This document shows, in pieces, positions 791 through 21,985 of a stretch of 22,090 bases of DNA. The stretch comes from Candidatus Krumholzibacteriia bacterium (GTDB lineage: Bacteria; Krumholzibacteriota; Krumholzibacteriia; WVZY01). A program made the position numbers and the translations under genes. The DNA is taken from NCBI GenBank assembly GCA_036478295.1, contig JAZGDW010000016.1, forward strand, positions 1 through 22,090, written 5' to 3'. Position 1 is the first letter of the stretch. Each line of letters opens with the position of its first letter. The notes below the pieces were generated by a model, which was not told the DNA's origin, ran no database searches, and saw nothing but the letters and a program-made list of their open reading frames with translations.

Positions 791-3777
791 GCGAGTCCCT
801 TCAGAAACTCCTCGTAGTGCCCACGGACCGCCGCCTTGTGGACGCGCAGTTCCGTCTCGAGCGCCGTTTTTCCTCTCATGCCCAGAAGTTCCGACGTCAC
901 CTCGAGGAACCGGATTATCTCGTCGCGTTTCGCGGCGTTGGTGGGTGGCGAAAAACCCTGCAGTTCGATCAGGTAGTCTATCCGCGCGTAGAAGGCGAGC
1001 GCGTCCTCGAGCGCGACGAGGGCTCGCCTGGATATGACGTCATCTGCGGCCAGCAGTGCCAGGCGCGCGCCGGTGCCGCCGTCCAGCGGAAAATCCTTGC
1101 CGCGCATGGCCAGCCCGATCGCGCAGAGATATTCGATGTCGTAGCGGCCGCCGGCGGAGCGCTTCGTATCGAGGAGCACCGCGTCCTTCGCGACCAGTCC
1201 TTCCAGTTTGCGGCGTGTCTCGACCAGCGTGGCGAGCCGCTTCGCGTCTGGCGTCGCGACGAGGTGGGGTCGCAGGATCTTGTGAAACTCGCCGACAGCC
1301 GCCTCGTCGCCGCTCCAGTGGGCGCACTTCGCGAACGCCACCGTTTCCCACGGCGACACGCGGCTTGCGAAATAGTGCCTGTAATAATCCACATCCTGGA
1401 CGAGCGGCGCGTTGGCGCCTTCGCCCCGCAGGCGATAGTCCAGTCTTAGAACATTCCCTTCGGACAACGCGCGGTTCACGAGCTGCAGCGCCCGTGTGAC
1501 GGGTTCACGCGATCCCCCCCGGGTAACCACGAGCAGGTCCACGTCGCTGCCGAGCCTTGGTTCACCTACGGCGTACGAGCCCATTGCGAACAGCGCCGCG
1601 CCCTCGGTGCCTCCGACACAATCGAGAGCGGCGGTGAGCAACTGTTTCGCCGATCGCGTCAAGGTTTCCGCAATCTTTGCGGGGAAGGTGCTGGCTTTCA
1701 TATCCTCGAACCACGCCGCTACCACCCTGCGATCGAGCGCGGCCACGACATTGCGGCGGTTCCGTTGTCGGTCGACCTCCTGCCGTTCCTCGAGCAATGC
1801 CTCGATGGGCGCGTCTTCGGTGATGGATGTACTCAGGATGACGGCGGGATCCTCGAACAAGGAATCCAGAATCTCGAAGTTAGCGCACAGTTTGCCGACA
1901 AGAAGGGTCGACGTGCCCGCCAGGTCCCGCAGCAGTGTGCGCGAAGCCGCCGACTCGCGGAGAAAATCGTAGAACGAGCCGACGTTCTTGCTAGCCACCG
2001 CGAGTTTCGAAAAGTTGACCAGCGCCGCGTTGGGATCGGCGGTCGGTGAGAGTTCTTCGAGTAGCGTGGGCAGCAGCTTTTGAAACGCGCCACGCGTGTT
2101 GCGGTCGACTAGGTCCGGGAACGAGCCGTAAGCGAGCGACTGCAGTACCCTTCGCGCCTGCTTGGGATCGCGAAAGTTGAAACCGGAGAGCGTCTCATGC
2201 GCCGCGTCGTCCTCCGGCAGGAGGAGCAGCAGTGCCGCCTCGGGCACGGTGTCCGCGCCGAAAAAGCTGTCGCTCAGCAGGCGGACCTCGTTGAGATGTT
2301 TGGAGAGAGTCGAGAGGAAGGTACGCTGCGTATACTTTCCCAGCGGTCCGTTGGCAACCCGTCGCGCGAGCAGCTGTATTTCCGGCGCCGAACTCGGGAT
2401 CGAGTGTGTCTTGAGCTGGTGCATCATTTGCAGGCGGTGCTCGACCACTCGAAAGAAGCGGTACGCCTTGATCAACGTCTGCTGCTCGATCTTCTTGATG
2501 AGCTTTCGCTTGTACGCCAGGTCAATGCCCTGCAATGTGTTGGTCACCCGGAGCTCCGGGTACTTGTTTCCGTAGAGAAGCTGCAGGGTCTGTATGATAA
2601 ATTCGATGTCGCGGATACCGCCCTCCATCAGCTTGATATTGAACGAGCGGTCCTTTGTCGAGATGTTTTCCCTTATTCGTTGGCGCATAAGGCCGATCGT
2701 CTCGACTGGTGAGTAGGACAACGTGGGATTGAACGCGAGACCTGCCACCCGGCTGAGAAAGGTTTCACCCACGGCCTTCGCGCCCGCGATCACCCGCGCC
2801 TTGAGCAGCGCCTGAAACTCCCACGGGCGCCCGCGGTTCTCGTAGTAAATTCTCATGGCGGTGAGCGAATTCACCAGCGGGCCGGTGGCACCGTCAGGCC
2901 GGAGCCGCAAATCGACGCGGTAGAAATACCCTTCGGCGGTGGCCTCCGAGAGTGTCGAAGTAACCTTTGTCGCTAGCCGGTGATAGAAGTCAAAACTCTG
3001 CTCGTCTACGTCCTCGCAAACGAAGATAAGATCGATGTCCGAACTGTAGTTCAACTCGCGCCCGCCCAGTTTGCCGAGCGCGAGCACGGCCAGACCGGAA
3101 AGCGGCGGGGGAGCCGCCGGTGTCGCCATCTCACTCCACACCATTTCGAGCACACAGTGCACAACGGCAGCGGCCAGGCTGCTGAGGCATGCGGTGGTTT
3201 CCTCAACCGTCTGCAGTCCCAGGAGATCCTTTACCCCTATTTTCAAGAGCATTCTTCTGTGGCATCTCCGGGTGGCGTCGAGCCGGGCGTGGAGCGAATG
3301 GAGCCTGGCTGCGTCCGTCTCGAGTTCCGACAGGTAGGTGGCGGTGGATTCCTGTCTGTCCCAGGTATGCTTCTCGATCAGCCAATAGAGGTACCCTGGG
3401 TTACGGATGATGATGTCCGCCATGTACTGGCTGGAGCCGAAGATCGTCGCCAGGATTTCGCGCATTGGCTTGCCACCGGCCGCGGTGTTCAGAAAAGCGC
3501 TCGAGGTTCCGGAGATATCCAGGAAGCGCAGGAAGTTTATCATCGCACCGGTGGGGGAAGGTGATTCGAGGAGTTCCTTGATGACGCTGGCGAGTGGGGC
3601 GGGAGAAGCATAACCGAATCTCGCCGACATTCCGTGCAGGGCATCGACGAGTTCGGGATCGGCCGGGAACTCCATTGCCGCCAATCGTGCCCCCGTGTTG
3701 CTCGTAGCGGGGTCATGCACGATGTCAGTAACAAGTTTCTGAAGTTCGAGCTGGATGGATTTCGGCTTGCGACCCAT
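787..3777 (-). CDS. glnE: Bifunctional glutamine synthetase adenylyltransferase/adenylyl-removing enzyme (996 aa)
   Basis: Two nucleotidyltransferase repeats. N-terminal: LGKLGGRELNYSSDIDL...RVDLRLRPDGATGPLV...WEFQALLKAR...NIKLMEGGIRDIEF...EHRLQM. C-terminal and divergent: MGSYAVGEPRLGSDVDL...DYRLRGEG...GGRYDIEY. Confidence 0.93.
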   Translation of the reverse strand: MGRKPKSIQLELQKLVTDIVHDPATSNTGARLAAMEFPADPELVDALHGMSARFGYASPAPLASVIKELLESPSPTGAMINFLRFLDISGTSSAFLNTAAGGKPMREILATIFGSSQYMADIIIRNPGYLYWLIEKHTWDRQESTATYLSELETDAARLHSLHARLDATRRCHRRMLLKIGVKDLLGLQTVEETTACLSSLAAAVVHCVLEMVWSEMATPAAPPPLSGLAVLALGKLGGRELNYSSDIDLIFVCEDVDEQSFDFYHRLATKVTSTLSEATAEGYFYRVDLRLRPDGATGPLVNSLTAMRIYYENRGRPWEFQALLKARVIAGAKAVGETFLSRVAGLAFNPTLSYSPVETIGLMRQRIRENISTKDRSFNIKLMEGGIRDIEFIIQTLQLLYGNKYPELRVTNTLQGIDLAYKRKLIKKIEQQTLIKAYRFFRVVEHRLQMMHQLKTHSIPSSAPEIQLLARRVANGPLGKYTQRTFLSTLSKHLNEVRLLSDSFFGADTVPEAALLLLLPEDDAAHETLSGFNFRDPKQARRVLQSLAYGSFPDLVDRNTRGAFQKLLPTLLEELSPTADPNAALVNFSKLAVASKNVGSFYDFLRESAASRTLLRDLAGTSTLLVGKLCANFEILDSLFEDPAVILSTSITEDAPIEALLEERQEVDRQRNRRNVVAALDRRVVAAWFEDMKASTFPAKIAETLTRSAKQLLTAALDCVGGTEGAALFAMGSYAVGEPRLGSDVDLLVVTRGGSREPVTRALQLVNRALSEGNVLRLDYRLRGEGANAPLVQDVDYYRHYFASRVSPWETVAFAKCAHWSGDEAAVGEFHKILRPHLVATPDAKRLATLVETRRKLEGLVAKDAVLLDTKRSAGGRYDIEYLCAIGLAMRGKDFPLDGGTGARLALLAADDVISRRALVALEDALAFYARIDYLIELQGFSPPTNAAKRDEIIRFLEVTSELLGMRGKTALETELRVHKAAVRGHYEEFLKGLA

Positions 3778-3813: not shown

Positions 3814-4220
<407 letters not shown>

Positions 4221-4221
4221 T

Positions 4222-5229
4222 TTGAACGTTCTGGGGATAGAAACCTCCTGTGACGACACTTCCCTGGCGCTGTTCTCCACGGAGCGGGGCGTCATCGCCA
4301 ATCTCACGGCCAACCAACTTATCCACGACAAGTACGGTGGCGTGGTACCCGAGTTAGCGTCGCGCGCCCATATCAAGAATCTGCTGCCCGTGTACCGGGC
4401 GCTGCTGGCCGAATCGGGGATGAAGGCGGAAGATCTCGACGGGATTGGGGTCAGCAACGGTCCCGGCCTCATCGGCTCACTGTTGGTCGGTGTCAGTTTC
4501 GCCAAAGCGCTGGCCTACGCGCTCAAGCTTCCGCTGGTGGGCGTTCACCACATAGAGGCCCACATTCACGCGAACGAGCTCGAAGGCGAAACGCTGCAAA
4601 CGCCCGCGGTAGTGCTCGTCGTGTCCGGCGGGCATACGTGCCTGTACCACATTCCGTTGCCCGGGCGTTACGACCTGGTAGGCAACACGCGGGATGACGC
4701 CGCGGGAGAGTCCTTCGACAAGATCGCCAAGCTGCTCGGGCTGGGTTTCCCGGGCGGACCCGCCATCGAAAACGCCGCAAAACAAGGCGACGGCGACGCC
4801 ATCCAGTTTCCGCGAGCGATGATGAAAAAAGATAATCTGGAATTCAGTTTCTCCGGGCTCAAGACGGCGGTCATGCTTCACGTCGAACGCCAGGGTCGTT
4901 TGCAGCCGAAGGCCGTGTCGGACATCGGCGCGTCGGCCCAGCGCGCCATCGTTGATGTTCTTATAGAAAAAACCATGATGTGTGCATCTCGCCACAAGGT
5001 AGACCACATTTACCTCGCCGGCGGCGTGGCGGCAAATCAACTGCTTCGGGAAGAACTTGCCGGATCCTGTGCTGGCAAGGGACTTCATTATCACGCCCCG
5101 TTGCTCCAGTATTGTACCGACAACGGAGCCATGGTTGCCTGCACCGCCGCTGGGTACCTGGACCGCGGGCACGACGACACGCTGCATCTCGACGTGTTCG
5201 CCCGGGGACCGGTTTCTTCCTGGGCGTAG
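4222..5229 (+). CDS. tsaD: tRNA N6-adenosine threonylcarbamoyltransferase (start TTG 4222; in-frame GTGs at 4204 and 4210 are alternatives)
   Basis: VLGIETSCDDT, GGVVPELASRAH, GPGLIGSLLVG, metal-binding HHIEAH, VSGGHT, DDAAGESFDK, FSFSGLKTA, AGGVAAN, CTDNGAM. Confidence 0.96.
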   Translation: MNVLGIETSCDDTSLALFSTERGVIANLTANQLIHDKYGGVVPELASRAHIKNLLPVYRALLAESGMKAEDLDGIGVSNGPGLIGSLLVGVSFAKALAYALKLPLVGVHHIEAHIHANELEGETLQTPAVVLVVSGGHTCLYHIPLPGRYDLVGNTRDDAAGESFDKIAKLLGLGFPGGPAIENAAKQGDGDAIQFPRAMMKKDNLEFSFSGLKTAVMLHVERQGRLQPKAVSDIGASAQRAIVDVLIEKTMMCASRHKVDHIYLAGGVAANQLLREELAGSCAGKGLHYHAPLLQYCTDNGAMVACTAAGYLDRGHDDTLHLDVFARGPVSSWA

Positions 5230-5499: not shown

Positions 5500-5516
5500 T
5501 TGGCATATTTATTGCC
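5500..5516 (+). promoter_or_regulatory. Sigma54 (RpoN) -24/-12 promoter for the signalling operon
   Basis: TTGGCAT-ATTTA-TTGCC matches TGGCAC-N5-TTGC with exact GG/GC spacing. It lies 44 nt before the ATG at 5561, with an AT-rich tract (~5438-5472) upstream where an IHF site would be expected. Confidence 0.7.
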
Positions 5517-5560
5517 AAATTCGATGTAAATAACAGAAATCGCTAAAGGTGGAACAGCGC

Positions 5561-6541
5561 ATGTTAACCCAGGATGTGACGCCGTACAGAATTCTCGTCG
5601 TCGACGACGAGCCGCACATCGTCCAGATTCTCAAGTTCACACTGGAGAAAGCGGGCTATCAGGTCTTCACCGCGAACAACGGTAAGGTGGCCCTCGACCG
5701 CATTCCCGAAATCGCCCCCAATCTCGTCATCCTCGACATCATGATGCCGGTGCTGGACGGCTATGAGGTATGTCGCAGAATGCGAGAAGACTTCAAGATG
5801 AACCAGATTCCCATCATCATGTTGTCCGCCAAAGGAGGCCTGGACGAGCGTGTCAAGGGGTTGACGCAGGGCGCCAACGATTACTTGATCAAGCCCTACT
5901 CGAACGACGAGCTGCTCCTGCGAGTGAAGAACGTTCTCGAGTGGAACATCGCGCAAAAAGAGGCCAACCCGCTGACCGGGCTGCCCGGCAACACGGCGAT
6001 CGAACGTGAACTCAAAATCCGTATCAACCGTAGCCTTCCCTTCGCGTTCCTCTACATCGACATCGACAATTTCAAGGGTCTCAACGATTACTACGGCTAC
6101 CAAAAGGGAGACGAAATAATCAGTTTCCTCGCGGGCATTCTCACAAAGACAATCGAGAAACTCGGTACCAAAGACGATTTCATCGGCCACATCGGTGGTG
6201 ACGATTTCGTGATGGTGACGGATCCAACCCGGGCGGAGTTCCTGGCCAAGCACATCATCGATGAATACGACAAGGGGGCTCTCTTCTTGCTGAGCGAGGA
6301 AGACGTTAAGAGGGGCTATTTCGAAGTGCGCAACCGGCAGGGCGAGATTGCCAGGATATCGCTCATGTCCATCACGGTCGCCCTGGTCGTCAGCACGGAC
6401 AACAGGATCAAGCACTTCGCGGAGATCAATGATATCGCCAGTGGCCTCAAGAAGTACGGCAAGAATATGAAGGGGAGTGTCGTCATCAAAGAGAGGCGGA
6501 TGGACGCCATGCCGAGTCCTCAAAGTGTTGACGAAACCTGA
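5561..6541 (+). CDS. Response-regulator diguanylate cyclase (REC-GGDEF, GGDDF variant); alternative GTG start at 5549
   Basis: REC: ILVVDDE, phospho-Asp LDIMMP (5735-5737), MLSAK, DYLIKP. GGDEF: ANPLTGLPGN, DIDNFKGLNDYYG...GDE, GHIGGDDF (GGDDF at 6194-6208). GGTGG SD-like sequence at 5548-5552. Confidence 0.92.
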   Translation: MLTQDVTPYRILVVDDEPHIVQILKFTLEKAGYQVFTANNGKVALDRIPEIAPNLVILDIMMPVLDGYEVCRRMREDFKMNQIPIIMLSAKGGLDERVKGLTQGANDYLIKPYSNDELLLRVKNVLEWNIAQKEANPLTGLPGNTAIERELKIRINRSLPFAFLYIDIDNFKGLNDYYGYQKGDEIISFLAGILTKTIEKLGTKDDFIGHIGGDDFVMVTDPTRAEFLAKHIIDEYDKGALFLLSEEDVKRGYFEVRNRQGEIARISLMSITVALVVSTDNRIKHFAEINDIASGLKKYGKNMKGSVVIKERRMDAMPSPQSVDET

Positions 6542-6571
6542 TCCAATTGCAGTGGATAACGGAGTGACAAG

Positions 6572-7402
6572 ATGGAAATAGACGTTGGATTGGAAAAAGA
6601 GCAGGCGCTCAAGAGTCTTCTGAACGAAGCAAGGGCCGAGGCGGATGCGCTGAGTCGGCGCGTGGAAAAACTCGAAAAGATCATTCTGTCCACGCGGCTG
6701 CTCATGGGTCACGAGATCAAGAAACCGACGACCGCAATCACGGGATTTCTGGAACTCGCGGTGGAAGAGCTGGATGAAGACGAGCACCGCGACATCGTCG
6801 CATACGTTACCAAAGCACGTAACGCCTGCCAGCTGTTGAACGAGTTGAACTTGTTCTTCATAGAACTACTGGAGGTTGACGTGCGGCCGGGGACGGTCCA
6901 GAGCGGCGAGGTTTCGATCCGGAGATTCGTCGATGAGACCCTGAACCATATCCCCGAACATTTGAACGCAAAAGCCCGCGTAAAAACACGGATTTCACCG
7001 GATGTGCAGAAGTTCAACCTGAACCCAGACGCGTTCAAAGTAATCCTGACCAACCTTCTCGAGAATGCCCTTAGTTACTCGACGGCAGACAAGCCCGTGC
7101 ACATCGAAATCCAGAGGGACCGCGAAAAGCGCGGGGTCGGTGGAGAACACCTGCTGAAGCTCAAAGTTGTCGATCAGGGTGAGGGAATCCCCAAGTCCTT
7201 CATCAAGAAAATATTCTGGCCGTTTGTGAGGCTGCATGACGATGACATCGAAGGAACGGGGCTTGGATTGACGCTGGTGCGAAGCCTGGTCGAACTGAAT
7301 GGTGGCCAGATACATATCCGGAGCAAGAAAGGTGAAGGAACCACAGTGTACGTGACCCTGCCGGAACTCACGGAAAATCCGAAACTCGAGCACAAGTCAT
7401 GA
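6572..7402 (+). CDS. Cytoplasmic histidine kinase without a sensor domain (coiled coil-HisKA-HATPase_c, 276 aa)
   Basis: H-box MGHEIKKPTTAI, N-box ILTNLLENALSY, G1 DQGEGIP, F-box IFWPF, G2 GTGLGLTLV. SD GGAG at 6561-6564. Confidence 0.88.
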   Translation: MEIDVGLEKEQALKSLLNEARAEADALSRRVEKLEKIILSTRLLMGHEIKKPTTAITGFLELAVEELDEDEHRDIVAYVTKARNACQLLNELNLFFIELLEVDVRPGTVQSGEVSIRRFVDETLNHIPEHLNAKARVKTRISPDVQKFNLNPDAFKVILTNLLENALSYSTADKPVHIEIQRDREKRGVGGEHLLKLKVVDQGEGIPKSFIKKIFWPFVRLHDDDIEGTGLGLTLVRSLVELNGGQIHIRSKKGEGTTVYVTLPELTENPKLEHKS

Positions 7403-10400
7403 TCAAACACGCCGGAAGATTTGTCGAAGACACGCACGGCGGTGCCGGGACGATGTCGGAGTTGCTCCATCTGAGAATGGTGGAGTTGTTCTCCTTTTTC
7501 ATAATCGTCTTTGCGACAGGCCGGATCGCCGGGTTCGTGTACGAGTTGGGCGCTTTCCTCCTGCTTTTTGTTTGCGCGACCTTTCTCCAGTTCGTCACCA
7601 GCATAATGTGGAGTTTCACAGGCCGGAGGCTTGGATGGCGCGGTGACCGGATTGACTTGGCGATGCGCTGGTATTCGGGGGTGCTGGACTTCTTCGTCGT
7701 CTTCGGCATCATATATCTCACCGGTTCGATCGAGAGTCCTTTCCTGTTCCTGCTGGTAATACCCCTCTTTTTCGCCAGTCACATCTTTTCTCTCAGGGTG
7801 ACGTTGGGCGTGTTTCTTGCCGGTACCGTGGCCGCCGTGGGTGTGCTGGGATATCTCGAGCTGACGGGAATGGTAGCGCACCATAGCTGCTACGCTTTCG
7901 AAAATAAAGTGTACCTGGATCCCGACTACTACATGGCGTCGTTGCTCGTCCTCGCAGGATTTCTCGGATTGATCGTATTCCTGTCCCACGCATTTCAGAA
8001 TCATTTCCATAGCTCCATCTCGACGCTGCACGAACAGGATCAACAGACACAAGACAAGATCAGCGAACTGGCGAAGCTGTACGACATCAGCCTGGGGATC
8101 AACACAGTAATGACCGTGGAAACGCTGCTCAAGATGGTGGCAAAGGAGGCCACTATTCTCCTGGCACAACCGTGGGCGGCCATCATCCTGTTCAACCAGC
8201 AGCAGGAGATCACACACTCGGCCATCGTCGGCATACCGGAAACGTTTCACTCCAATCTGGGCTCGAAGATGCGAAAAGGCGGGGTCACCGAATGGTTGTG
8301 GAAGAACAATCAACCGGTCGTCGTCGAGGACGTCCTGGCTGACAAGCGGGCCAGCGCCGGGGAGTTCCTGATGGCAACGAAAATCCGGTCACTGATCGGG
8401 CTGCCGTTGAGCACGGGGCACCAGGTGATTGGGGTCATCTACGTCGGCGATTTTGTCACTAAGAGGTTCGAGGATAACCACCTGCGCCTGCTGGCAGTCA
8501 TGAGCGATCAACTGGCTATCGCGATTGCCAAGAGCAAGCTATACGAGTCAATCCAGCGAAAACTCCACATGTACGAACAGAAAGTGGAAACCCTCGAAAG
8601 AACGAACGTTCTCAAATCAGAATACGTATCTCATGCGTCCCACGAACTACGGACGCCCCTGACCTCGATCAAAGCCTACATGGAAACGTTACGCAACCAC
8701 ATTGACGATCCATCTTTCACCGAGAAAAAGGACTTTGTTGAGATCGTGTCCAAAGAAACTGACCGGCTCATTCGCATCGTCAACGACATTCTGGACGTGT
8801 CCAACATCGAGTTCGGACAGAGGGCGCCGAAGCGGGAAGCTTTCCAGATAGAGGATACGATAAAGCAAGTGACCTCGATGATACAGCCGAAGCTGTCCGA
8901 CAAGAACATCACACTCAAAACTGACCTGCCGGGAAACCTGCCAAAGGTCGACGCGGACAAAGATCTCATGACGCAGGTCTTCATTAACCTGATTACCAAC
9001 GCTGTCAAGTATTCGCCGGAGGGGACAACGGTAACCATCACAGCGCGGGAGGATGCCGTTGACGTGATTATATCCATCGAAGACCAGGGCATCGGGATTC
9101 CCCGGGCGCAGGTGGAAAATATCTTCGATAAGTACTTCCGCGTCAAATCGGAGGAGTCGCGTCAGTATGACGGCATTGGACTGGGACTGGCCATCGTCAA
9201 GAATATCATAGAGCAGCACGGCGGCACTATTACAGTAACGAGCAAGGAGCGCGTTGGCAGCAGATTCATTTTTACTATACCCAAAGAACACTGCGTAAAC
9301 GAGTTGCTGGGATACATCTCGGAGGGTGTGAGTTCACAGACCGAACTGCACGAGATGTTGAAGGTCATCGTGCGTATGATTGCGGAACTACTGGGCGCCA
9401 AGATCGTGTCGTTGATGTTACTCGATCAGAACCGCACGGAGCTCTTTATCAAGGTGTCCTACGGGTTGGATGAGTGGATTGTCGACCAGGCCCGCGTGAA
9501 GCTCGGAGAGGGAATAGCGGGCAAGGTGGCTGAGACGGGGCTGCCGCTGCTCATCGACAACATAGAGGAGAACGAATTTTATAACTCACCCAACAATCCG
9601 CAGTACGAAACGATGTCCCTTCTGAGCGTTCCACTGAGGGTCGGAAAAGTCGTTGTGGGGGTCATCAATGTAAACAACAAGACGTCCGGCAAGCCGTTCG
9701 ACCAGGATGACATGAATCTGCTCATGTCGTTCGGGGAAAGGATTGCGAAGGCGTTGGAACGCATGCGGACCGCCGACAAGAGCCAATTGTACCTCGCGGA
9801 TACCGTCGAGGCTTTCAAGAAGATGCTCGCCAAGCAGATCCAGACCCAGGGAATCGAGAAAATCGTGGGTATGGCCGTCAAGGTTTCACGCAGGCTCAAC
9901 CTCAGCGCCAAGGATACCAAGGTTATCCAGTACGTCGCGAGCGTACACGATATCGGCATGACCCGGATCAGCGACGAAATACTGAACAAGACTTTCAACC
10001 TTACGCCGGAAGAACTGGAACAGATCCGATCGCACCCGCAGGTTGGTACGGAACTCATGCGACCCCTGGAGTTCGTCGAACTCGTCAGCAACATCATTCT
10101 CTATCATCACGAGCGTGTGGACGGTTTGGGCTATCCGATCGGGCTAAAAGGGGAGGAAATTCCAATCGGCTCACGCATCTTGGCAGTAATAGACGCGTAC
10201 CAGTCGATAACGGACGATCGTCCGTACCGTGAAAAACAGAGACCAACAGTCGCCACGCAGGAACTGGTAGATTGCGCGGGCAAGCAGTTCGATATCGAGG
10301 TCGTGCGATGCTTCATCGAAGTGCTCAAGGATGAAGGGACACTTTCCGAAGAGAAGGCGAAGGATTTCAAGAAAGCGCTGCGGGCAGCGGTCCCCAGCAC

Positions 10401-10407
10401 TTATTAA
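7399..10407 (+). CDS. Membrane hybrid signalling protein 1: multi-TM, GAF, HisKA-HATPase_c, GAF, HD-GYP-like (1002 aa)
   Basis: Hydrophobic N-terminal helices. GAF (SLIGLPLSTGHQVIGVIYV...F). H-box SHELRTPLTSIKAY (His at 8641), NLITNAVKY, DQGIGIP, GIGLGLAIVK. Second GAF (GEGIAGKVA...SLLSVPL...VVGVINV). VHDIG (HD at 9946-9951), HHERVDGLGYP, RPYR. ATGA overlap with the upstream kinase gene. Confidence 0.9.
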   Translation: MIKHAGRFVEDTHGGAGTMSELLHLRMVELFSFFIIVFATGRIAGFVYELGAFLLLFVCATFLQFVTSIMWSFTGRRLGWRGDRIDLAMRWYSGVLDFFVVFGIIYLTGSIESPFLFLLVIPLFFASHIFSLRVTLGVFLAGTVAAVGVLGYLELTGMVAHHSCYAFENKVYLDPDYYMASLLVLAGFLGLIVFLSHAFQNHFHSSISTLHEQDQQTQDKISELAKLYDISLGINTVMTVETLLKMVAKEATILLAQPWAAIILFNQQQEITHSAIVGIPETFHSNLGSKMRKGGVTEWLWKNNQPVVVEDVLADKRASAGEFLMATKIRSLIGLPLSTGHQVIGVIYVGDFVTKRFEDNHLRLLAVMSDQLAIAIAKSKLYESIQRKLHMYEQKVETLERTNVLKSEYVSHASHELRTPLTSIKAYMETLRNHIDDPSFTEKKDFVEIVSKETDRLIRIVNDILDVSNIEFGQRAPKREAFQIEDTIKQVTSMIQPKLSDKNITLKTDLPGNLPKVDADKDLMTQVFINLITNAVKYSPEGTTVTITAREDAVDVIISIEDQGIGIPRAQVENIFDKYFRVKSEESRQYDGIGLGLAIVKNIIEQHGGTITVTSKERVGSRFIFTIPKEHCVNELLGYISEGVSSQTELHEMLKVIVRMIAELLGAKIVSLMLLDQNRTELFIKVSYGLDEWIVDQARVKLGEGIAGKVAETGLPLLIDNIEENEFYNSPNNPQYETMSLLSVPLRVGKVVVGVINVNNKTSGKPFDQDDMNLLMSFGERIAKALERMRTADKSQLYLADTVEAFKKMLAKQIQTQGIEKIVGMAVKVSRRLNLSAKDTKVIQYVASVHDIGMTRISDEILNKTFNLTPEELEQIRSHPQVGTELMRPLEFVELVSNIILYHHERVDGLGYPIGLKGEEIPIGSRILAVIDAYQSITDDRPYREKQRPTVATQELVDCAGKQFDIEVVRCFIEVLKDEGTLSEEKAKDFKKALRAAVPSTY

Positions 10408-10419
10408 CAGGGGTCGACA

Positions 10420-13400
10420 ATGGATTTGATCACAAATAGCCTTTTGGCAAGCGGCGGCGCCGATACGGCCTACATCGTCGCCACGGCCATCCTGGGCGCG
10501 TTCGTGATCTTTGCGGTTTGGAGGGGTCGCGTGCTGACCGGCGAGGGCGTGGTCCCACCCCTCTATTTCGCGCTGATCGCGTTTCTAGCCAGCCGGGTTT
10601 TGATACTCGATTCGTACCTATCGCCCGCGGGCATCAGACAGTCGGATCATGTGTTGTTTTCCTTGCTCTGCCTGGGAAGCTTCTACGTGTTGAACAGAAC
10701 CCTGCGCCGGCTTGTATGGTACGAAAGCGGGAATCCGCCGGGGGACCGGGACAACCCGGCCCTGGCGGCTGAGCGGACGCCGGTCCGCATACTGAAGCAG
10801 TCCACCTACTTCGGGCTCTTTGCCGGCTTTGTGTATCTGCTCAAATCGCCTTCCGTTACCATGGCTACCTTTGCCCTGGACCTCGTGAACTACTCGCTCG
10901 TTGCGGCGACCATTCCGATGGTCACCTTCGTTTTTGTATGGATAAGCCGGGTTCCCCGGGCACTCAAGGGGAGCGTCCTCGCCAGTGTCATTCTCATTAG
11001 TATGTCGTGGGGCCTCTTTCAAGTTGCAATGCTGACGAACGCACCCTGGAGTCCTTGGGCCATCGCGACCGCACGGGTAGGGGACATCGTGGGACTGTTT
11101 GTCCTCCTTATAACGCTGGTCTCTAATTACGTGCGCCTCGGCGCTTATTACCAGTCGCTTGCGGCCAAGAGCAAGGTCGACGTGAAGCGCGCGAAGAGCG
11201 AGCTCGATAAACTGAATGAGATCGCCTCCAATATTTATGAAGATAGCGCGAACCTCATCAAGAAGCAGAAACAGCAGACGATGGTCTACGTACGCAAGGT
11301 CGAAAGTCTCGAAAAGATCCTGCAAATCGGCATCTTGATTCAGCAGCGGCACCGCCTCGAAGAATTACTGCAGATGATCGTGGAACTGGTGAGAGACAAC
11401 CTGGGTTTCAAAACGGTGACACTGCGGCTGCTCAACAAGAAGGCGCAGACATTCGAAACCAGAGCGCATGTCGGTTTGAGCGACGAAATCCGGGAGACAG
11501 TCGCGAGTTACCGAATTCCCCTCGCAGAGTACAACAAAATGATCGAGCCCCGCTTTCGAATCAGCAACAGCTATTTCATCAAGCACAATAACCCATGGTA
11601 CGGCGATGAGCTGGAGGGCAACGAGACGGTACTCGTCGAAAACACATGGGATGACATCGACATGCTGTTGGTGCCTTTGGCGAGTGACGAAGAGGGGATA
11701 ATCGGATACCTGTCCGTCGAGAACCCCACCACACCCACTCTCGAGGTCGGCGACGTGATCGAAAACCTGGAAAACATTGCCTCCCTGGCGGTAACCACGA
11801 TACGAAACGCCAGATTCTTGAAGGAACTGGAACGGAAAAACCAGAAGCTCCGCCTTTACGCGGACAAACTGTCGGGTCTCAACAAGCTGAAATCGAATTT
11901 TGTCGCGACGATCTCGCACGAGTTCCGCACGCCGCTCACATCGATCAAGGCCTACTGTGACACGCTGCTGCAAAACGTGGAAAACGTCGACCGAGGCTTG
12001 TTGAAGCAGTTCCTCGTCGTCATCGATGAGGAGAGCAGGAGATTGATGGCGCTCATCGAGGACATTCTCGATTTCTCGCAAATGGAATCGGGCGCAATGC
12101 GATTCGAAAGGACACCGTGTAATCTGACGGATCTTTCCGCTGTCGCCGCGAAGGAGCTGGAGAAGAATTACGAGAGCAAGGGTTTGACACTCCACCGGAG
12201 GGTCCCGGACGAAAACGTTATGGTGCAGGGTGACAGGACCCTCCTCAAGCAATTGCTGGTAAGCCTCCTGCACAACGCGTCGAAATTCACCAGGCAGAGG
12301 GGCAACGTGTGGCTCACCATTGAGGATGCGACGGCGGCGGTCACCCTGGCGGTGGAGGATGAGGGTATCGGCATCCCTGACGATGAGCTGGAAAAGATAT
12401 TCGAGCAGTTTCACCAGGTCGATAGCACTACTACGCGAAAGCATGGCGGGTCGGGGCTGGGGCTCGCAATCTGTAAGAACATCGCGGAGTGGCACGAGGG
12501 CAGGATCTGGGTGGAAAACATTCCCGGGCGTGGAGCCAGATTCGTGGTCGTGCTGCCGAAGAAGCAGGCGGTGGTCAGAAGTCACGTCATCGGCATCCAC
12601 GGCGCCGTTCGTCGCTTCGAGGTGGAACGGTTGCTCGAACTTCTGGTGGAGAACATCGCCGAGTTCATGCAGGTACGTAAGGCGTCCATCATGCTGGTGG
12701 ACGAAAAGACCAAAGAACTCCGAATCGAGTGCGCCCTGGGTCTCGACGAGGAGATTGTAGAGGGTGCCAAGGTGAAGTTCGGGGAGGGTATCTCGGGACG
12801 GGTGGCCCAGGAAGCCCGGACGCTCCTCGTCACCAATATCGAAACCGACGAGCGTGTCTCCCAAAGCAATAATGAACTGCTGTACGGCTCAAAGTCGTTC
12901 TTGTCCGTTCCCATAATGAGCGGAGGCGAAGTAGTCGGGGTTGTCAATATTGCCAGCCCCATACACAAGCCGGTACTCGAAGAGTCGGACGGTCGCCTGC
13001 TGGAGATGCTGGTCGAGAGAGTGTCGACTGCGATAGAAAGATTGAAAGATTTTACCAAGGTATCGGGAAGGTACGAGCAGGTACGTGAAACGTTCAAGGC
13101 GATACTCGAAGCCAAGAGGTTCATAGACTCGGAGGACGACGACCTCACGGTGGAGATTGCCGTGAGGATTGCGCAAAAGCTCGGGCTCGACGCGGAAGAG
13201 GTCGCCCGGTTGCGTTACTCCCTGCATGTGTACGATTTGGGCCTGTCCAAGATCGGTTATCATATCATCAAAAAGCCCATGGAGTTGTCGCCGAGAGACC
13301 GCAAGGACATAGAGCGCCATACCAGCCTGGGCACGCAGATGCTGTCGGTGTTAGAGAACGACCCGGATGTGAGAAACGTCGTCCTGTACCATCACGAGAA

Positions 13401-13686
13401 CTTCGATGGTACCGGCTACCCCGGGCAGTTGAAAGGCGACGCCATCCCCATCGAAGCGCGAATTGTTCGCGTGACGGATTCGCTACGTGGCCTGATGTCG
13501 AGGCGACCCTACCAGAGACAGTACTCGCTCAGCGAGGCGATGGAAGTCATCAAACATCGTTCGGGAGACCTCTTTGATCCGGAGATCGTGGACGTCTGTA
13601 TTGAAGTCATAGAAGAATTTGAGGGTAAGGCCGCCCAGGACGGAACCGGAGTTCCGGGAGAAGCGACCGTCGAGGATCGATCTTAG
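10420..13686 (+). CDS. Membrane hybrid signalling protein 2: multi-TM, GAF, HisKA-HATPase_c, GAF, degenerate HD-GYP (YD-GYP) (1088 aa)
   Basis: About 6-7 hydrophobic segments. GAF (MLLVPL...IIGYLSV). H-box SHEFRTPLTSIKAY (His at 11917), LLHNASKF, DEGIGIP, GSGLGLAICK. Second GAF (GEGISGRVA...SFLSVPI...VVGVVNI). VYDLG (YD at 13231-13236), HHENFDGTGYP, RPYQ. Confidence 0.9.
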   Translation: MDLITNSLLASGGADTAYIVATAILGAFVIFAVWRGRVLTGEGVVPPLYFALIAFLASRVLILDSYLSPAGIRQSDHVLFSLLCLGSFYVLNRTLRRLVWYESGNPPGDRDNPALAAERTPVRILKQSTYFGLFAGFVYLLKSPSVTMATFALDLVNYSLVAATIPMVTFVFVWISRVPRALKGSVLASVILISMSWGLFQVAMLTNAPWSPWAIATARVGDIVGLFVLLITLVSNYVRLGAYYQSLAAKSKVDVKRAKSELDKLNEIASNIYEDSANLIKKQKQQTMVYVRKVESLEKILQIGILIQQRHRLEELLQMIVELVRDNLGFKTVTLRLLNKKAQTFETRAHVGLSDEIRETVASYRIPLAEYNKMIEPRFRISNSYFIKHNNPWYGDELEGNETVLVENTWDDIDMLLVPLASDEEGIIGYLSVENPTTPTLEVGDVIENLENIASLAVTTIRNARFLKELERKNQKLRLYADKLSGLNKLKSNFVATISHEFRTPLTSIKAYCDTLLQNVENVDRGLLKQFLVVIDEESRRLMALIEDILDFSQMESGAMRFERTPCNLTDLSAVAAKELEKNYESKGLTLHRRVPDENVMVQGDRTLLKQLLVSLLHNASKFTRQRGNVWLTIEDATAAVTLAVEDEGIGIPDDELEKIFEQFHQVDSTTTRKHGGSGLGLAICKNIAEWHEGRIWVENIPGRGARFVVVLPKKQAVVRSHVIGIHGAVRRFEVERLLELLVENIAEFMQVRKASIMLVDEKTKELRIECALGLDEEIVEGAKVKFGEGISGRVAQEARTLLVTNIETDERVSQSNNELLYGSKSFLSVPIMSGGEVVGVVNIASPIHKPVLEESDGRLLEMLVERVSTAIERLKDFTKVSGRYEQVRETFKAILEAKRFIDSEDDDLTVEIAVRIAQKLGLDAEEVARLRYSLHVYDLGLSKIGYHIIKKPMELSPRDRKDIERHTSLGTQMLSVLENDPDVRNVVLYHHENFDGTGYPGQLKGDAIPIEARIVRVTDSLRGLMSRRPYQRQYSLSEAMEVIKHRSGDLFDPEIVDVCIEVIEEFEGKAAQDGTGVPGEATVEDRS

Positions 13687-13714
13687 CAGTAGTATCCCTA
13701 GGGAGAGCGTAACG

Positions 13715-14092
13715 ATGCACAAAGGAAAAGTACTGGTGGTAGACGACGAGGTTTACATTCTTCACATCCTGGAGTTCAGCCTGGGCGCGGAAGGGTTCGA
13801 GGTTATTTCCGCAAGCAACGGAGAACTCGCCGTCGAAAAAGCAAAACAGGAAAAGCCCAACCTGATCGTGCTGGACATCATGATGCCTGTGCTGGACGGG
13901 TACGAAACGTGCAGGCGGCTGAAACAGGATCCGGAGACCAAGGACATTCCTGTTGTTCTTCTGACAGCCAAGGGGCGGGATGTCGACAAGCGCCTTGGCT
14001 TCGAAGTGGGCGCGATCGACTATATCGTAAAGCCCTTTAGCCCCAGCCGGCTGATCGAACGCATCGAAGAGATCATCGGGGTCAAAAAGTAA
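13715..14092 (+). CDS. Single-domain response regulator (stand-alone receiver, 125 aa)
   Basis: VLVVDDE, LDIMMPVLDG, LLTAK, DYIVKPF, with no output domain. SD GGGAG at 13701-13705 supports the ATG at 13715. Confidence 0.92.
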   Translation: MHKGKVLVVDDEVYILHILEFSLGAEGFEVISASNGELAVEKAKQEKPNLIVLDIMMPVLDGYETCRRLKQDPETKDIPVVLLTAKGRDVDKRLGFEVGAIDYIVKPFSPSRLIERIEEIIGVKK

Positions 14093-14167: not shown

Positions 14168-16399
14168 ATGCATCTGACGTCACGAGATTCTTCCGCTCGA
14201 TCTAGAACGTTCGCCAAGGTGGCGCTGCCGCTGCCCGTGGCGACCTACTTTACCTATCAAATACCAGAAGAACTGCGCGAAACAATTCTGCTCGGTGGCC
14301 GGGTGGAAGTGCCGTTCGGCAAACGAATCATGAGCGGCGTCGTCGTAGAGTTTTCAGACGCCAGCGACGTTGCGAAGATCAGACCAATCCGCCGGCTTTA
14401 CCAGACGTATCTCCCCGAACCGCTCTTGAAACTCACGCACTGGATCGCGTCGTACTACGGCTGCTCCGTTGGAGAAGCAGCCCAGGCCGTGTTGCCCCCG
14501 GTGCTAAAAAAATCACTGAGAAAGGACCGGGTGCGGGGGGTACTTCACCTGATAAAGCCGAAGGACGGAAGCAGCTACGATGAAATATTGAAGAGGGCGC
14601 CCAAACAACTGGCGCTGGTCAGCTTTCTCGCGCAGTCGGGGGGACGGGCGGCCGTCGGGACAGTCACCGGCGATGGGGGTTTCGAGACCGTGCAAATAAA
14701 CAGCCTGCAAGCGAAAGGCCTGGTCAAGCTCGAGGCCGGAACTCGCGTGTCCCCGCTTGCGCTCATAGAAGAGGAGGTGATGAATCTCAACGTGCATCAG
14801 AGCCGCGCACTGGACGGGATAAACCGGTGCCTGTCGGTCGGTGAGTTTGCCCCTGTGTTGTTGCACGGCGTGACGGGCAGCGGCAAGACCGAACTCTACC
14901 TGAGGGCCGCGCGGCGAGTGATTTCGGACGGCGGAGGGTGCATCGTGCTCGTGCCTGAAATCGGCCTGATTCCGCAGGCCACGGAACGATACCGGCGCTT
15001 TTTTGGAGAAGAGATCGCGATTCTGCACAGCCGCTTGACCGGGCCGGAGCGATTTTCCGTCTGGCGGCGAATCGAAAGCGGCGAGTGCCACATCGTCCTC
15101 GGTCCCCGTTCCGCCGTGTTCAGCCCGGTAAACAATCTGAAACTTATCATTGTGGACGAGGAGCAAGACGACTCTTACAAACAAGAAGACAAGCCCCGCT
15201 ACCATGCGCGAAGCGTTGCCCTCATGCGCGGCAAGAACGAGGCCCTTACCGTCGTCATGGGCTCGGCGACGCCTTCCCTGGAATCGTTTCACCGGGCCAA
15301 GCAGGGGCGTTACAGATACCTGTCACTACCGACGCGCGCCGGGGACGCGTCCCTGCCCGAGATAACCCTGGTGGATATGCGCGTGGCATCCCTGGAGGGC
15401 ACGTTTTTTTCATCGCAGCTCCTCGAGCGCCTCGAGGACAACGTCAACCAGGGATACCAGAGCATCCTCTTTCTTAACAAACGCGGGCACGCTCGGTTTG
15501 TTCAGTGCAACACCTGCGGTTGGGTGGCGCGGTGCAGAAACTGCGATATCTCGCTGACCTACCACCGGGTGACGAACAGCCTGAGGTGTCATTTCTGCGG
15601 CTATAATAGAGGGGCGGTCACGCGCTGTGCCGAATGTGGCGGCGCCCGGCTTTATTTTGCCGGCGCGGGAACCCAACGCATCGAGCTGGACCTGGGCGCG
15701 TTTTTTCCGGGAGCGGGAATCCTGCGCATGGACGCCGATACGACGGCGGGCAAGGAAGGTCACCGCCGCGTATTGGAGGAGTTCAGTACGGGCAACTACC
15801 CTTTCTTGATCGGCACCCAGATGGTGACCAAGGGGCACCATTTCCCGAAGGTGAACCTGGTCGGCGTGCTCTTCGCCGAGGAAAGTCTGAACTATCCGGA
15901 TTTTCGGTCGGCGGAGCGTACCTTCCGGCAACTCACCCAGGCCGCCGGCCGGGCAGGCCGCGTCGGCAAGAGTGGAGTCGTGGTGATTCAAACCTACGTG
16001 CCGGAGCATCACGTGTTCAAGCATCTCCAATCCCACGATTACGATGCATTCATGGCCGAAGAACTGCGTGTCCGCCGGCAACTCAAATACCCGCCGTTTT
16101 CCAGGATTATCCTTGCGACATGCAGCGCCCCCGGCCCGGCCGTGCTTGGGCGCGTGATCGGGTTGTGGGCCGCCACGGTTCGAAAACGGCTGGCTGGAAA
16201 AGCGGACGTGCTCGGCCCCGCGCCGCCGTTGGTGGCAAAAGTCAAGAACCGGTTTCGCGAGCAACTGATGATCAAGGGACGGTTGTCGAATTCGCAGAAG
16301 GCGATCCTCCTCGATGATTTCAGGAAGGTCAGCGAGCGGGTGCGCGGCGGCCGGACGGTACAGCTGAGATGGGACGTCGATCCGGAGACGTTCTATTGA
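14168..16399 (+). CDS. priA: Primosomal protein N' (replication restart helicase)
   Basis: N-terminal FTYQIP...RVEVPFG, Walker A LLHGVTGSGKTELY, LVPEIGL, IIVDEEQD...YKQ, GSATPSLES, four CxxC pairs (CNTC, CRNC, CHFC, CAEC), GTQMVTKGHHF, QAAGRAGR. Confidence 0.97.
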   Translation: MHLTSRDSSARSRTFAKVALPLPVATYFTYQIPEELRETILLGGRVEVPFGKRIMSGVVVEFSDASDVAKIRPIRRLYQTYLPEPLLKLTHWIASYYGCSVGEAAQAVLPPVLKKSLRKDRVRGVLHLIKPKDGSSYDEILKRAPKQLALVSFLAQSGGRAAVGTVTGDGGFETVQINSLQAKGLVKLEAGTRVSPLALIEEEVMNLNVHQSRALDGINRCLSVGEFAPVLLHGVTGSGKTELYLRAARRVISDGGGCIVLVPEIGLIPQATERYRRFFGEEIAILHSRLTGPERFSVWRRIESGECHIVLGPRSAVFSPVNNLKLIIVDEEQDDSYKQEDKPRYHARSVALMRGKNEALTVVMGSATPSLESFHRAKQGRYRYLSLPTRAGDASLPEITLVDMRVASLEGTFFSSQLLERLEDNVNQGYQSILFLNKRGHARFVQCNTCGWVARCRNCDISLTYHRVTNSLRCHFCGYNRGAVTRCAECGGARLYFAGAGTQRIELDLGAFFPGAGILRMDADTTAGKEGHRRVLEEFSTGNYPFLIGTQMVTKGHHFPKVNLVGVLFAEESLNYPDFRSAERTFRQLTQAAGRAGRVGKSGVVVIQTYVPEHHVFKHLQSHDYDAFMAEELRVRRQLKYPPFSRIILATCSAPGPAVLGRVIGLWAATVRKRLAGKADVLGPAPPLVAKVKNRFREQLMIKGRLSNSQKAILLDDFRKVSERVRGGRTVQLRWDVDPETFY

Positions 16400-16890: not shown

Positions 16891-17970
16891 ATGAAGCTAA
16901 TGAAGTTGGGGTTGTTCGGGTATGCGATAATGCTCGTCTTCTTCGCCGGTTGCAAGTCGAAGGAGACGACGAGCGCGATTCTTCACAACTCCGTAGGCAG
17001 GTACGATCTTGCGATCCAGACCGCCACGGAGGCTCTTGCTAAGGACCCCACCGATGCCGAAGCGCATTTTCAGCTGGGCATATCCTACAGCCACCTCGAC
17101 AGCACCGGCCTGGCATATGAGAATTTTATGAGGGCAGCCGAGCTGGACCCCAACCAGATCCGCAAGAAGAACGTCGAGAATAACATCCAGAGTAACTACG
17201 CAAAGCACTACAACCGCGCGTTGAAAGTGATGAAAGACGAGGACAAGACCGACGCGGTTGCGGAATTCATTAAGGCCACGCAGGCCGACCCGCGTGAAGC
17301 CAAGGCGTTTTTTCAACTCGCGAAAGTCTATTCAATGATGGGCGAATCCGAACCCAAGTACTACAACAACGCGATCGCGAATTTCGACAGGGTGCTCGAT
17401 CTGGCGACACCGGCGGACAAACACTATATCGACGCCCTGAGTCTTGCCGGAGAGGTTCTCGCCAAATCGGGCAGGCCGGAAGAAGCGGTGTCGCGTTTTG
17501 CCCGGCTGGTTGAGGAGGACCCGACGAATTACCGCGTCATCGAGAAGCTGGGATACAGCCGCCTGGACACAAAAGACTGGAAGGGTGCCGCGGTCTTTCT
17601 CGACCTGTCGGCCCAGGCCAGGTCAAAAATCGGGGCAGAGGATTTCAATCTCTACTACAACCTCGGCGTCGCCAATTTCCAGATGGGCAAGGAAGTACCG
17701 GATTTTCTGCCCAGGGCGGTGGATTATTACCAGAATGCGCTAAACCTCGAGCCCAACGAGCCCACGACTACGTACAATATCGTGGCCACCTATGTGGTGG
17801 GTGAGAACTGGGCCGAGGCGGTGACCTGGGGCGAGCGTTACGTCGATCTCAAACCAGATGATCCGAACGGCTGGAAGCTTCTCTCACGAAGCTATACGGA
17901 GTTAGGAGACCAGGAAAAAGGGCGCCAGTGCATGGCCCGGTACGCGGAACTCGTCAAGCAGTCTGACTAG
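16891..17970 (+). CDS. Tetratricopeptide-repeat lipoprotein (359 aa)
   Basis: Signal peptide with lipobox FAG|C (Cys21). Repeated TPR patterns: AEAHFQLGISY, AKAFFQLAKVY, LYYNLGVANF, ALNLEPNE, DPNGWKLLSRSY. Confidence 0.85.
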   Translation: MKLMKLGLFGYAIMLVFFAGCKSKETTSAILHNSVGRYDLAIQTATEALAKDPTDAEAHFQLGISYSHLDSTGLAYENFMRAAELDPNQIRKKNVENNIQSNYAKHYNRALKVMKDEDKTDAVAEFIKATQADPREAKAFFQLAKVYSMMGESEPKYYNNAIANFDRVLDLATPADKHYIDALSLAGEVLAKSGRPEEAVSRFARLVEEDPTNYRVIEKLGYSRLDTKDWKGAAVFLDLSAQARSKIGAEDFNLYYNLGVANFQMGKEVPDFLPRAVDYYQNALNLEPNEPTTTYNIVATYVVGENWAEAVTWGERYVDLKPDDPNGWKLLSRSYTELGDQEKGRQCMARYAELVKQSD

Positions 17971-18041
17971 ACCAGGAGTGCGGGGCGGCGGTTGATCACC
18001 CGGTAGACAACCCTTCAAAGATTGCCGATTCCGGGCGGTTT

Positions 18042-18058
18042 CTGGAATAGAAATTGCA
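18042..18058 (+). promoter_or_regulatory. Possible sigma54 -24/-12 motif upstream of rho
   Basis: CTGGAAT-AGAAA-TTGCA has exact GG-N10-GC spacing and lies ~280 nt upstream of rho. Confidence 0.4.
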
Positions 18059-18341
18059 AGATATTTGGGACATCATCCCAGGTGAACCTTCTTTTTGAAC
18101 AGTGAAAGCTTGATCGGCCGGTACGGCCGAATTGCAGGCACCCATAGAGCTTTTACGATCTTCTGACTCAGGCCCTCTAGCTGTAGATTTCGTGCAAACA
18201 GGCCGAAGGCATAAGACAGGTAAAACAAGGACGTGGCCCGCCTTTCGACCGGGCGCGTCGACAACGTCGCTCAAGCATTCAACCTTCTAAACTATGTTAC
18301 CCCAAACCAGGAGGAATCCCATTACTACCAAGAGCGAAGGC

Positions 18342-19589: not shown

Positions 19590-19592
19590 TCC

Positions 19593-19633
19593 GCCCAAGG
19601 TCCGTAACCACCTTTCGGATTGGGGCTTGCTTT
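19593..19633 (+). terminator. Possible imperfect hairpin downstream of rho
   Basis: CCCAA..TCCG / CGGA-TTGGG interrupted stem followed by TTGCTTT. The loop is large and the U-tract weak. Confidence 0.25.
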
Positions 19634-19655
19634 GCCCGGCGTCACGGCTTATACT
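19627..19655 (+). promoter_or_regulatory. Sigma70-type promoter for rpmE-DUF1385-prfA
   Basis: TTGCTT (19627-19632)-N17-TATACT (19650-19655). Confidence 0.7.
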
Positions 19656-19725
19656 TTTTCCGAAGTGACAACGGCAACCCGCCCGCCCGAAGGACCGGCC
19701 CGTCGCGCGAGGTATGGAGAAACCG

Positions 19726-19935: not shown

Positions 19936-19975
19936 AGTCTTCCCACCCGGGACGCCCGCCAGGGCCGTCTTTCCT

Positions 19976-20884: not shown

Positions 20885-20910
20885 CCCATCATCCACACCG
20901 GATCGGTGCC

Positions 20911-21972: not shown

Positions 21973-21985
21973 GCCCGGATCGGCG

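Follow-up and report, generated by a model that had tools for sequence, protein, structure and literature searches.

A conserved operon of Krumholzibacteriota with a sigma54-type promoter motif, a REC-GGDDF protein, a lone receiver and histidine kinases ending in degenerate HD-GYP domains

Introduction

The subject of this study is a stretch of 22 090 nucleotides from a Candidatus Krumholzibacteriia bacterium (GenBank assembly GCA_036478295.1, contig JAZGDW010000016.1, positions 1 to 22 090, forward strand), referred to here as the window. The source genome (G000, in which the window is contig C68) is 3.5 Mb in size and 91% complete. The window carries five genes, A to E, which form a real, conserved and apparently uncharacterised operon. 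We describe it as a variant of kinase signalling responsive to cyclic di-GMP (c-di-GMP), with a tie to type IV pili that is supported, not proven. The reading that we prefer, tentatively and at a little under an even chance, is a sigma54 phosphorelay co-regulated with pilus genes: C and D would act on A and E, and their pseudo-HD-GYP tails would sense c-di-GMP and feed back. Published work is cited by PubMed Central identifier, or as a preprint.

Results

Five genes behind a sigma54-type motif

The elements of the operon are as follows.

5501..5515, + strand: putative sigma54 (-24/-12)-type promoter motif, TGGCATATTTATTGC, differing by one base from the pilM motif and by two from the pilA motif of the same genome
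5561..6541, + strand: gene A, REC-GGDDF response regulator (ATG at 5561 the likely start, GTG at 5549 an alternative)
6572..7402, + strand: gene B, soluble, sensor-less histidine kinase (Pfam HATPase_c only; H47, HEIKKP)
7399..10407, + strand: gene C, 6TM-GAF-HisKA(H415)-HATPase-GAF-pseudo-HD-GYP, where TM is a transmembrane segment (HDIGM; RPYR)
10420..13686, + strand: gene D, paralog of C, 5TM-GAF-HisKA(H500)-HATPase-GAF-pseudo-HD-GYP (YDLGL; RPYQ)
13715..14092, + strand: gene E, single-domain receiver (Pfam REC only)

The original prediction, made from the letters of the sequence, had described five tightly packed co-directional genes behind a sigma54 motif. The open reading frames (ORFs) bear this out, with gaps of 30, −4, 12 and 28 nt, and the motif is indeed found upstream. 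Its count of three kinases and two receivers with no DNA-binding output is also upheld, Pfam showing no DNA-binding domain in the five proteins. The predicted domains fared less evenly: Pfam confirms the kinase, REC, GGDEF and HD_5 domains, but the cyclase motif is GGDDF rather than GG(D/E)EF and both HD-GYP domains are degenerate. By Pfam, C and D share the architecture GAF-HisKA-HATPase_c-GAF-HD_5, and A is REC plus GGDEF; none of the NCBIfam models shown reaches its cut-off for the operon proteins. Hydropathy gives six N-terminal membrane segments for C, five for D (a poorly conserved region without a Pfam match) and none for B, whose His box was read directly from the sequence, without a Pfam HisKA match. 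No terminator-like element was matched on the + strand between E and priA, the next gene downstream.

The tails of C and D have lost catalytic residues and kept contact residues

We counted tail residues, in the numbering of the HD-GYP phosphodiesterase PmGH, in 75 C-type and 80 D-type tails of the phylum and in 120 homologues of an Eisenbacteria protein. Four canonical HD-GYP domains from the same genome served as controls, and all four were canonical at all 13 positions. The fold itself is of the PmGH type: Pfam assigns HD_5, the G284-Y285-P286 motif is present, and the structure model of the C tail (predicted local distance difference test score 88) matches 4MCW, with PmGH the best hit (E 2e-16) and the receptor DvhD ranked third.

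The active site departs from that of PmGH. K225 is replaced by Met, Leu, Val or Ile in all 275 tails (155/155 within the phylum) and is Lys in 4/4 controls. A His within two columns of H189 is found in 3/75 C, 11/80 D and 3/120 Eisenbacteria-type tails, versus 4/4 controls. H221 is Tyr in 80/80 D tails, D308 is retained in only 7 of the 155 phylum tails, and D183 and E185 are lost in the query tails. Thus, among the metal ligands of active PmGH (H189, H221, D222, H250, H276, H277 and D305), C and D lack H189 and D also lacks H221, and the catalytic set K225, D183 and D308 is not preserved. In PmGH, H189A, H221A, D183A, D308A and K225A each lose activity (PMC4159591). The original prediction had allowed that the HD-GYP domains bind or degrade c-di-GMP; because residues essential in PmGH are gone, the tails are very probably not hydrolases, and degradation of c-di-GMP by them is not supported.

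The opposite view, that the tails are active, perhaps slow, phosphodiesterases and that the operon both makes and degrades c-di-GMP, is very unlikely, and we rejected it on the residue pattern. It could appeal to the HD, H250, HH, D305 and GYP that C tails keep. It could also appeal to xanthomonad RpfG, which lacks H189, yet a Lysobacter homologue is reported active (Galperin and Chou preprint). Loss of H189 of this kind is compatible with reported activity and counts against our view of the tails, but the case covers no additional loss of K225. In C, K225, H189 and usually D308 are lost together, and in D H221 as well, each essential in PmGH. The tails also group apart: a quick tree of 123 domains split 96 kinase-type tails from 27 free HD-GYP domains with a Shimodaira–Hasegawa-like approximate likelihood ratio test value of 100, 20 of those 27 having been selected for the HDxGK motif.

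What the tails keep points to binding. D222, H250 and E278 are fixed across the 275 tails, as is D305 bar one Glu; H277 is found in 274/275 and R314 in 261/275, H276 is nearly fixed and Y285 largely kept. The nucleotide-contact residues Y285, L239, R314, Y316 and K/R317 are kept, as expected of a DvhD-type receptor, with Gln at 317 in the D proteins of this order. DvhD is an inactive HD-GYP receptor with a dissociation constant of 99 nM for c-di-GMP, whose stalks splay on binding (PMC13090378). At the position of its bridging-site Pro (P567) the C tail has Ser and the D tail Gly, and one metal-ligand set is kept. In PmGH, H189 and H221 are assigned to the H site, and c-di-GMP was trapped uncleaved in the subunit holding the G-site iron only (PMC4159591). 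The residue pattern of the tails resembles this one-metal state. By elimination, we take H250, H276 and H277 with D222 to be the G site. Judged by the kept contacts, the tails look like c-di-GMP binders, in line with the other half of the original prediction, and we slightly favour the view that they bind a cyclic dinucleotide.

The ligand need not be the same for both paralogs. C might read c-di-GMP through RxYR and D 3′,3′-cGAMP (cyclic GMP-AMP) or pGpG through RxYQ, since RxxQ moves specificity towards cGAMP in several HD-GYP proteins (Galperin and Chou preprint) and RPYQ is present in 18/18 D tails of this order. We consider this highly improbable: the other 62 of the 80 D tails have Arg or Lys at that position, D308 has become Arg in the same RPYQ tails and may compensate, and the four GGDEF domains read in this genome (a fifth, on C228, lies outside the count) carry Asp, not the Ser or Thr of Hypr enzymes.

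The second GAF domain of C (window 9340–9760) has a conserved NNK...F...DD motif and is as conserved as the kinase core. We take this motif to be the NKFDE motif of cyclic-nucleotide GAF domains. Structural matches to the C-tail model include, at this GAF, the cyclic AMP-bound GAF of Lcd1, so a second nucleotide input here is possible. Elsewhere in the genome, another degenerate HD-GYP protein (RDIGM; G000:C58:5993-7678) lies directly before a canonical REC-HD-GYP gene.

Gene A carries a GGDDF motif

The 330-aa ORF of A has GGDDF at residues 216–220 and an intact phospho-Asp motif. It keeps the GGDEF fold, DxDxFK, the N and D guanine-site residues and the GG. HxGGDDF is present in 42 of 43 parsed orthologs, the 43rd being a mis-parse, and the guanine-site position is Asp in 43/43. 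We therefore ruled out a Hypr GGDEF cGAMP synthase of the GacA or GSU1937 type, which would have Ser or Thr in place of this Asp. A has no RxxD inhibitory site (I-site), does not match the GG(D/E)EF active-site motif and contains a conserved inserted hairpin with an invariant Arg.

Precedents for GGDDF proteins point both ways: GSU1937 is an active enzyme, and PA3258 gave no cyclase phenotype (PMC8835794). The latter tells against activity in A, as does the His that replaces the usual Arg before the GG. On balance, the residues place A at an even chance of being an active cyclase.

If both A and the tails were non-enzymatic, the operon could be a pure phosphorelay scaffold working by protein contact, between tail and GGDDF domain or between the C and D tails, with no shared nucleotide. 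All three c-di-GMP domains do have fixed non-canonical residues, A has the inserted hairpin with its invariant Arg, and inactive HD-GYP proteins such as HnoD work through protein contacts (Galperin and Chou preprint). We nevertheless think a scaffold unlikely, as the tails almost invariantly keep Y285, guanine and phosphate contacts of the R314/K317 type and one metal site, which a scaffold would not require, and A keeps DxDxFK, N, D and GG.

C and D may share targets

The His box and the ATP boxes (N, G1 and G2) are intact in B, C and D. At H+4, C and D carry the Thr seen in bifunctional HisKA kinases, and B carries Lys or Arg in place of Thr or Asn. When the specificity helix of the dimerization and histidine phosphotransfer domain was compared among the 18 H-box kinases found in the genome, C against D scored 41, partly as expected of paralogs, either against the others at most 26, and B against C or D 11–13. 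This pattern suggests that C and D share targets and that B has a different role. Among 20 receivers of the genome compared over the alpha-1 helix, A is the best match of E, and E the second best of A. FliM was not found in this genome, in any of the 7 genomes of its family or in more than 1/8 of the sister family, although it was matched in 83/128 phylum genomes. A role for E as a flagellar CheY is unlikely because FliM was not found in the family.

An invariant pair between tsaD and priA

The operon lies between two conserved neighbours.

4108..5229, + strand: tsaD, conserved upstream neighbour, outside the system
14168..16399, + strand: priA, conserved downstream neighbour

Its nearest relatives are in Ca. 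Krumholzibacteriia. Kinase C has a match at E ≤ 1e-60 in 39/41 related genomes, mostly as a C/D pair. In an alignment search, the GGDDF domain of A was matched in 128/128 phylum genomes at least 90% complete, mostly in single copy, with a few second copies and matches in family f4 that look paralog-like. We annotated 106 loci, of which three are second-copy loci. The original prediction had proposed a search for conserved synteny, and the layout tsaD-[REC-GGDDF]-…-[lone REC]-priA is indeed kept across phylum loci. The order A-B-C-D-E-priA is found in 23/25 loci of families f1, f2, f5, f8 and f9, with tsaD upstream where the contig extends that far. One of the two exceptions is cut by a contig end. 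The other (L020, G012:C1:2519000-2537000, from an 80% complete genome) has B-C-D-E-priA and no match to A or tsaD in the 5.4 kb upstream, by rearrangement or an assembly problem.

Beyond these families the kinases vary. Loci of f3 and f7 have an extra receiver between C and D in place of B; in 19 f3 loci D and the extra receiver are kept and C is gone. In f6, C alone remains of the kinases in 7/11 loci and only A and E in the other four. Three f4 loci have a tail-less kinase or no kinase between A and E. The minimal layout, tsaD-A-E-priA, is that of four genomes. Gene B is confined to the one clade of families f1, f2, f5, f8 and f9 and is mutually exclusive with the extra receiver gene in the loci examined. 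This extra single-domain receiver, with Asp and Lys intact, precedes D wherever B is missing (L017:9416-9817, L019:10418-10807 and other f3, f7 and f4 loci). Of the genes in the cluster, E is conserved best, with 80–96% identity within the order. The invariant core is therefore A and E between tsaD and priA; B, C and D vary by lineage. To call the operon self-contained, as the original prediction did, is too strong, both on this account and because the specificity helix of B is unlike those of C and D and the genome has four other GGDEF proteins and several canonical HD-GYP proteins. Three f4 loci (L124, L248 and L249) carry a further REC-GGDDF paralog accompanied by a receiver and two kinases, and many f3 genomes have second GGDDF matches.

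Beyond the phylum, proteins of the C type are frequent in records under the name Ca. Eisenbacteria. A related GAF-kinase-GAF protein, in some cases with a YD-type tail, is present in 25/201 genomes of the phylum of a Thermodesulfovibrionales record, and 10/10 Nitrospirota-type loci examined place it outside this operon. There, similar tails sit on stand-alone kinases with a degenerate ATPase (one example lacks a Pfam ATPase match), which weighs against the reading that we prefer. These proteins are possibly a pseudokinase form of the same receptor. In the loci concerned (L221–L230), the GAF-degenerate kinase-GAF protein, with or without the tail, is often beside a kinase and a receiver protein of about 450 aa. 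No kinase-tail fusion was found in 148 other related loci from genomes and metagenomes beyond 10 close relatives. In a search of representative proteins, whose matches were mostly multi-GAF proteins, kinase and tail occurred together in 16 of the 150 matches listed; a plasmid search gave distant GGDDF-clade relatives only.

The promoter motif is shared with pilA and pilM

The genome has rpoN and 11 enhancer-binding proteins. The strict motif TGGC-N7-TTGC lies upstream of A in 16/18 ortholog loci (chance 0.0094 per 330 nt) and in 73/99 loci of a wider set. The genome has 201 sigma54-like sites. The one most similar to the operon motif precedes the major pilin gene, and one of the two that come next precedes pilM. 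The sequence TGGCATATTNNTTGC occurs exactly three times in the genome, before A, pilA and pilM (0.045 expected). It is found before both A and pilM in 5/5 relatives, picked with the A motif known and the pilM motif not known, and nowhere else in four of the five. In 20 further genomes a sigma54 motif is present at pilM in 20/20 and at A in 18/20. Within a genome, the spacers at A and pilM have 3.6 of 6 positions in common, against 2.6 after shuffling (24 pairs; 0/2000 shuffles), a figure inflated by kinship. The operon is thus likely to be co-regulated with type IV pilus genes.

Kinase C is lost with the pilus genes

Pili were scored as present given a PilM match at E < 1e-24 or an ortholog of PilT. 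Three genomes whose PilM is weak or missing but whose PilT is clear count as present, and two with weak PilT-like matches (one of 48% identity) and no strong PilM as absent. PilT was found in 106/128 phylum genomes. Of the 98 genomes on the tree, 72 combine pili with C, truncated contigs underlying the C call in three of them; 23 have neither, three have pili but no tailed C, and C never occurs in a genome that lacks pili. The count leaves out four genomes outside the 90% set, two with truncated contigs and the 28/128 whose loci lie outside the annotated set. C is lost with pilM and pilT in both pilus-less lineages, which form two separate clades (23/23 genomes), and a whole-genome search of five of the 23 found no relocated C.

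The membrane domain of C offers a further, looser link. PilS contacts pilin through a six-helix membrane domain (PMC6058289), and 14 of 28 C orthologs match Pfam 6TM_PilS at E ≤ 0.1 (best 4.3e-6). The pilS-pilR pair of this genome is on another contig, beside pilB-pilT-pilC, and none of the five operon genes encodes a PilR-type sigma54 activator. A link between the membrane domains of PilS and DmxA has no occurrence in the DmxA paper and was not used.

Several observations weigh against a pilus role. The co-loss represents two independent events only and is not statistically significant (sign test p 0.5). The pilus-less f3 clade still has A, D, E and the sigma54 motif, and the motif at A is kept in 19/23 pilus-less genomes. 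The spacer co-variation, besides being raised by kinship, could reflect sigma54's own preference. The C of the window matches 6TM_PilS below the Pfam cut-off (E 0.027; hhalign probability 21%), and many f3 and f6 versions of C have no membrane domain. Finally, the MshEN domain of the genome's PilB departs from the c-di-GMP-binding RLG motif. Weighing promoter motif and co-loss against these points, we think that the operon is probably tied to type IV pili; since pilus-less genomes retain A, E, D and the promoter motif, serving pili cannot be all that the core does.

This leads to the main rival explanation, a general cell-cycle or polarity module like DivK/PleD of Caulobacter, with A and E as an essential pair and pili as one output, through C. 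Such a role is compatible with pilus-linked feedback. A is present in 128/128 genomes, as against 83/128 for FliM and 106/128 for PilT, the minimal locus reduces to A and E, of which E is the most conserved gene, and a fixed place between tsaD and priA fits a core gene. In Myxococcus, the membrane domain of DmxA (6TM-GAF-GAF-GGDEF) directs the protein to the site of division (PMC11255338). On the other side, the locus has no cell-division gene or CtrA-like output, adjacency to priA is not function, the parallel with DivK/PleD is architectural, and the promoter evidence points to pili. We rate a general cell-cycle or polarity module as unlikely, if still the strongest competitor of the pilus-linked phosphorelay with c-di-GMP-sensing tails.

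Other neighbours in the window

At the start of the window, the end of a glnD-like gene (1–790, + strand) converges on glnE (787–3777, − strand), from which glnB, encoding PII (3882–4220, + strand), diverges, followed by tsaD. The order glnE-glnB-tsaD is found upstream of the operon in most f1 and f2 loci and not in several other families. After priA, positions 16891–22090 hold genes for a tetratricopeptide repeat (TPR) protein, rho, DUF1385 and prfA; many loci share the TPR-rho pair on the downstream side.

Discussion

Onto the established anatomy, synteny, residue losses, sharing of the promoter motif and co-loss of C with pili we place biochemical steps that we infer. Sigma54 would switch on the operon and the pilus genes together. 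C and D would add phosphate to A and E and remove it again, and phosphorylated A would make c-di-GMP. The tails, each holding one metal, would bind it without cleavage, and the signal might pass to the kinase core by a DvhD-like stalk movement through the second GAF domain or act by relocating the kinase, as in SgmT. C would couple this core to the state of the pilus, possibly reading pilin through its PilS-like membrane domain, and E may act on a target by protein contact.

No characterised system with this layout was found, in agreement with the original prediction. In the literature searched, which left most subscription journals outside its coverage, we found no description of a kinase-GAF-HD-GYP protein and, on this fusion, no mention of Krumholzibacteriota; the main text of a survey of HD-GYP architectures, taken apart from its Table 3 and supplements, does not mention HisKA. 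Known systems share single features. SgmT/DigR of Myxococcus xanthus combines a kinase, an N-terminal GAF and a C-terminal receptor domain derived from a c-di-GMP enzyme, and is tied to behaviour dependent on type IV pili; SgmT, however, is a hybrid kinase with a GGDEF receptor, and its partner DigR binds DNA (PMC3509222), whereas the present operon has a GAF-HD-GYP tail, two membrane paralogs and, as partners, a REC-GGDDF protein and a lone receiver. In DvhD of Desulfovibrio vulgaris (PDB 9RBZ/9RC0) a catalytically dead HD-GYP domain sits on a helical stalk, and it binds c-di-GMP and shifts conformation, as we propose for the tails; but DvhD has lost all metal binding (HD is SQ), carries PAS and dCache domains and controls a protease (PMC13090378), whereas the C and D tails keep one metal-ligand set and follow a histidine kinase in the same protein. 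PmGH of Persephonella marina (PDB 4MCW/4MDZ; PMC4159591) has the same GAF-HD-GYP tandem and, in common with the tails, GYP, D222, H250, H276, H277, D305 and R314, but is an active stand-alone phosphodiesterase, whereas the tails have lost E185, H189, K225, D183, mostly D308 and, in D, H221. In CckA, as is proposed here, c-di-GMP switches a bifunctional kinase, though it is bound on the kinase core and not on an HD-GYP tail (PMC5026420). PilS/PilR has a six-helix membrane kinase domain and shares the sigma54 promoter type at pilA (PMC6058289), but this genome has its own pilS-pilR, the 6TM_PilS match of C is weak and the operon lacks an enhancer-binding protein.

A further architectural parallel is in Caulobacter, where a lone receiver, DivK, and a receiver-cyclase, PleD, are served by two related kinases, DivJ and PleC. 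PleD is REC-REC-GGEEF with an I-site. Orthology is not suggested, and here all parts are in one sigma54 operon.

In kinases that are known to sense c-di-GMP, the receptor is either a degenerate GGDEF domain, as in SgmT, or the kinase core, as in CckA. A dead HD-GYP receptor was first shown in 2026, in DvhD, a protein that controls a protease. If the tails bind the messenger, c-di-GMP would gain one more entry into two-component signalling, and the one-metal HD-GYP state, so far seen only in crystals treated with ethylenediaminetetraacetic acid, would have a natural example. Gene A is a clean test case for whether GGDDF domains are cyclases, and the soluble domains of the operon proteins are open to direct expression and assay. 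At its most ambitious, the operon might be a core regulator of the whole phylum, in which c-di-GMP-sensing kinases of a new class drive the pair of REC-GGDDF protein and lone receiver. One of the kinase paralogs would read pilin and so tie the state of the pilus to c-di-GMP feedback for polarity or cell cycle, and the circuit would be a counterpart of DivJ/PleC-DivK-PleD that evolved independently. We regard this as a speculative and rather unlikely extension. Genes for c-di-GMP signalling are usually patchy in distribution, so a GGDDF gene in every near-complete genome of the phylum, with a promoter motif common to pilA and pilM, suggests a behaviour central to these uncultured bacteria.

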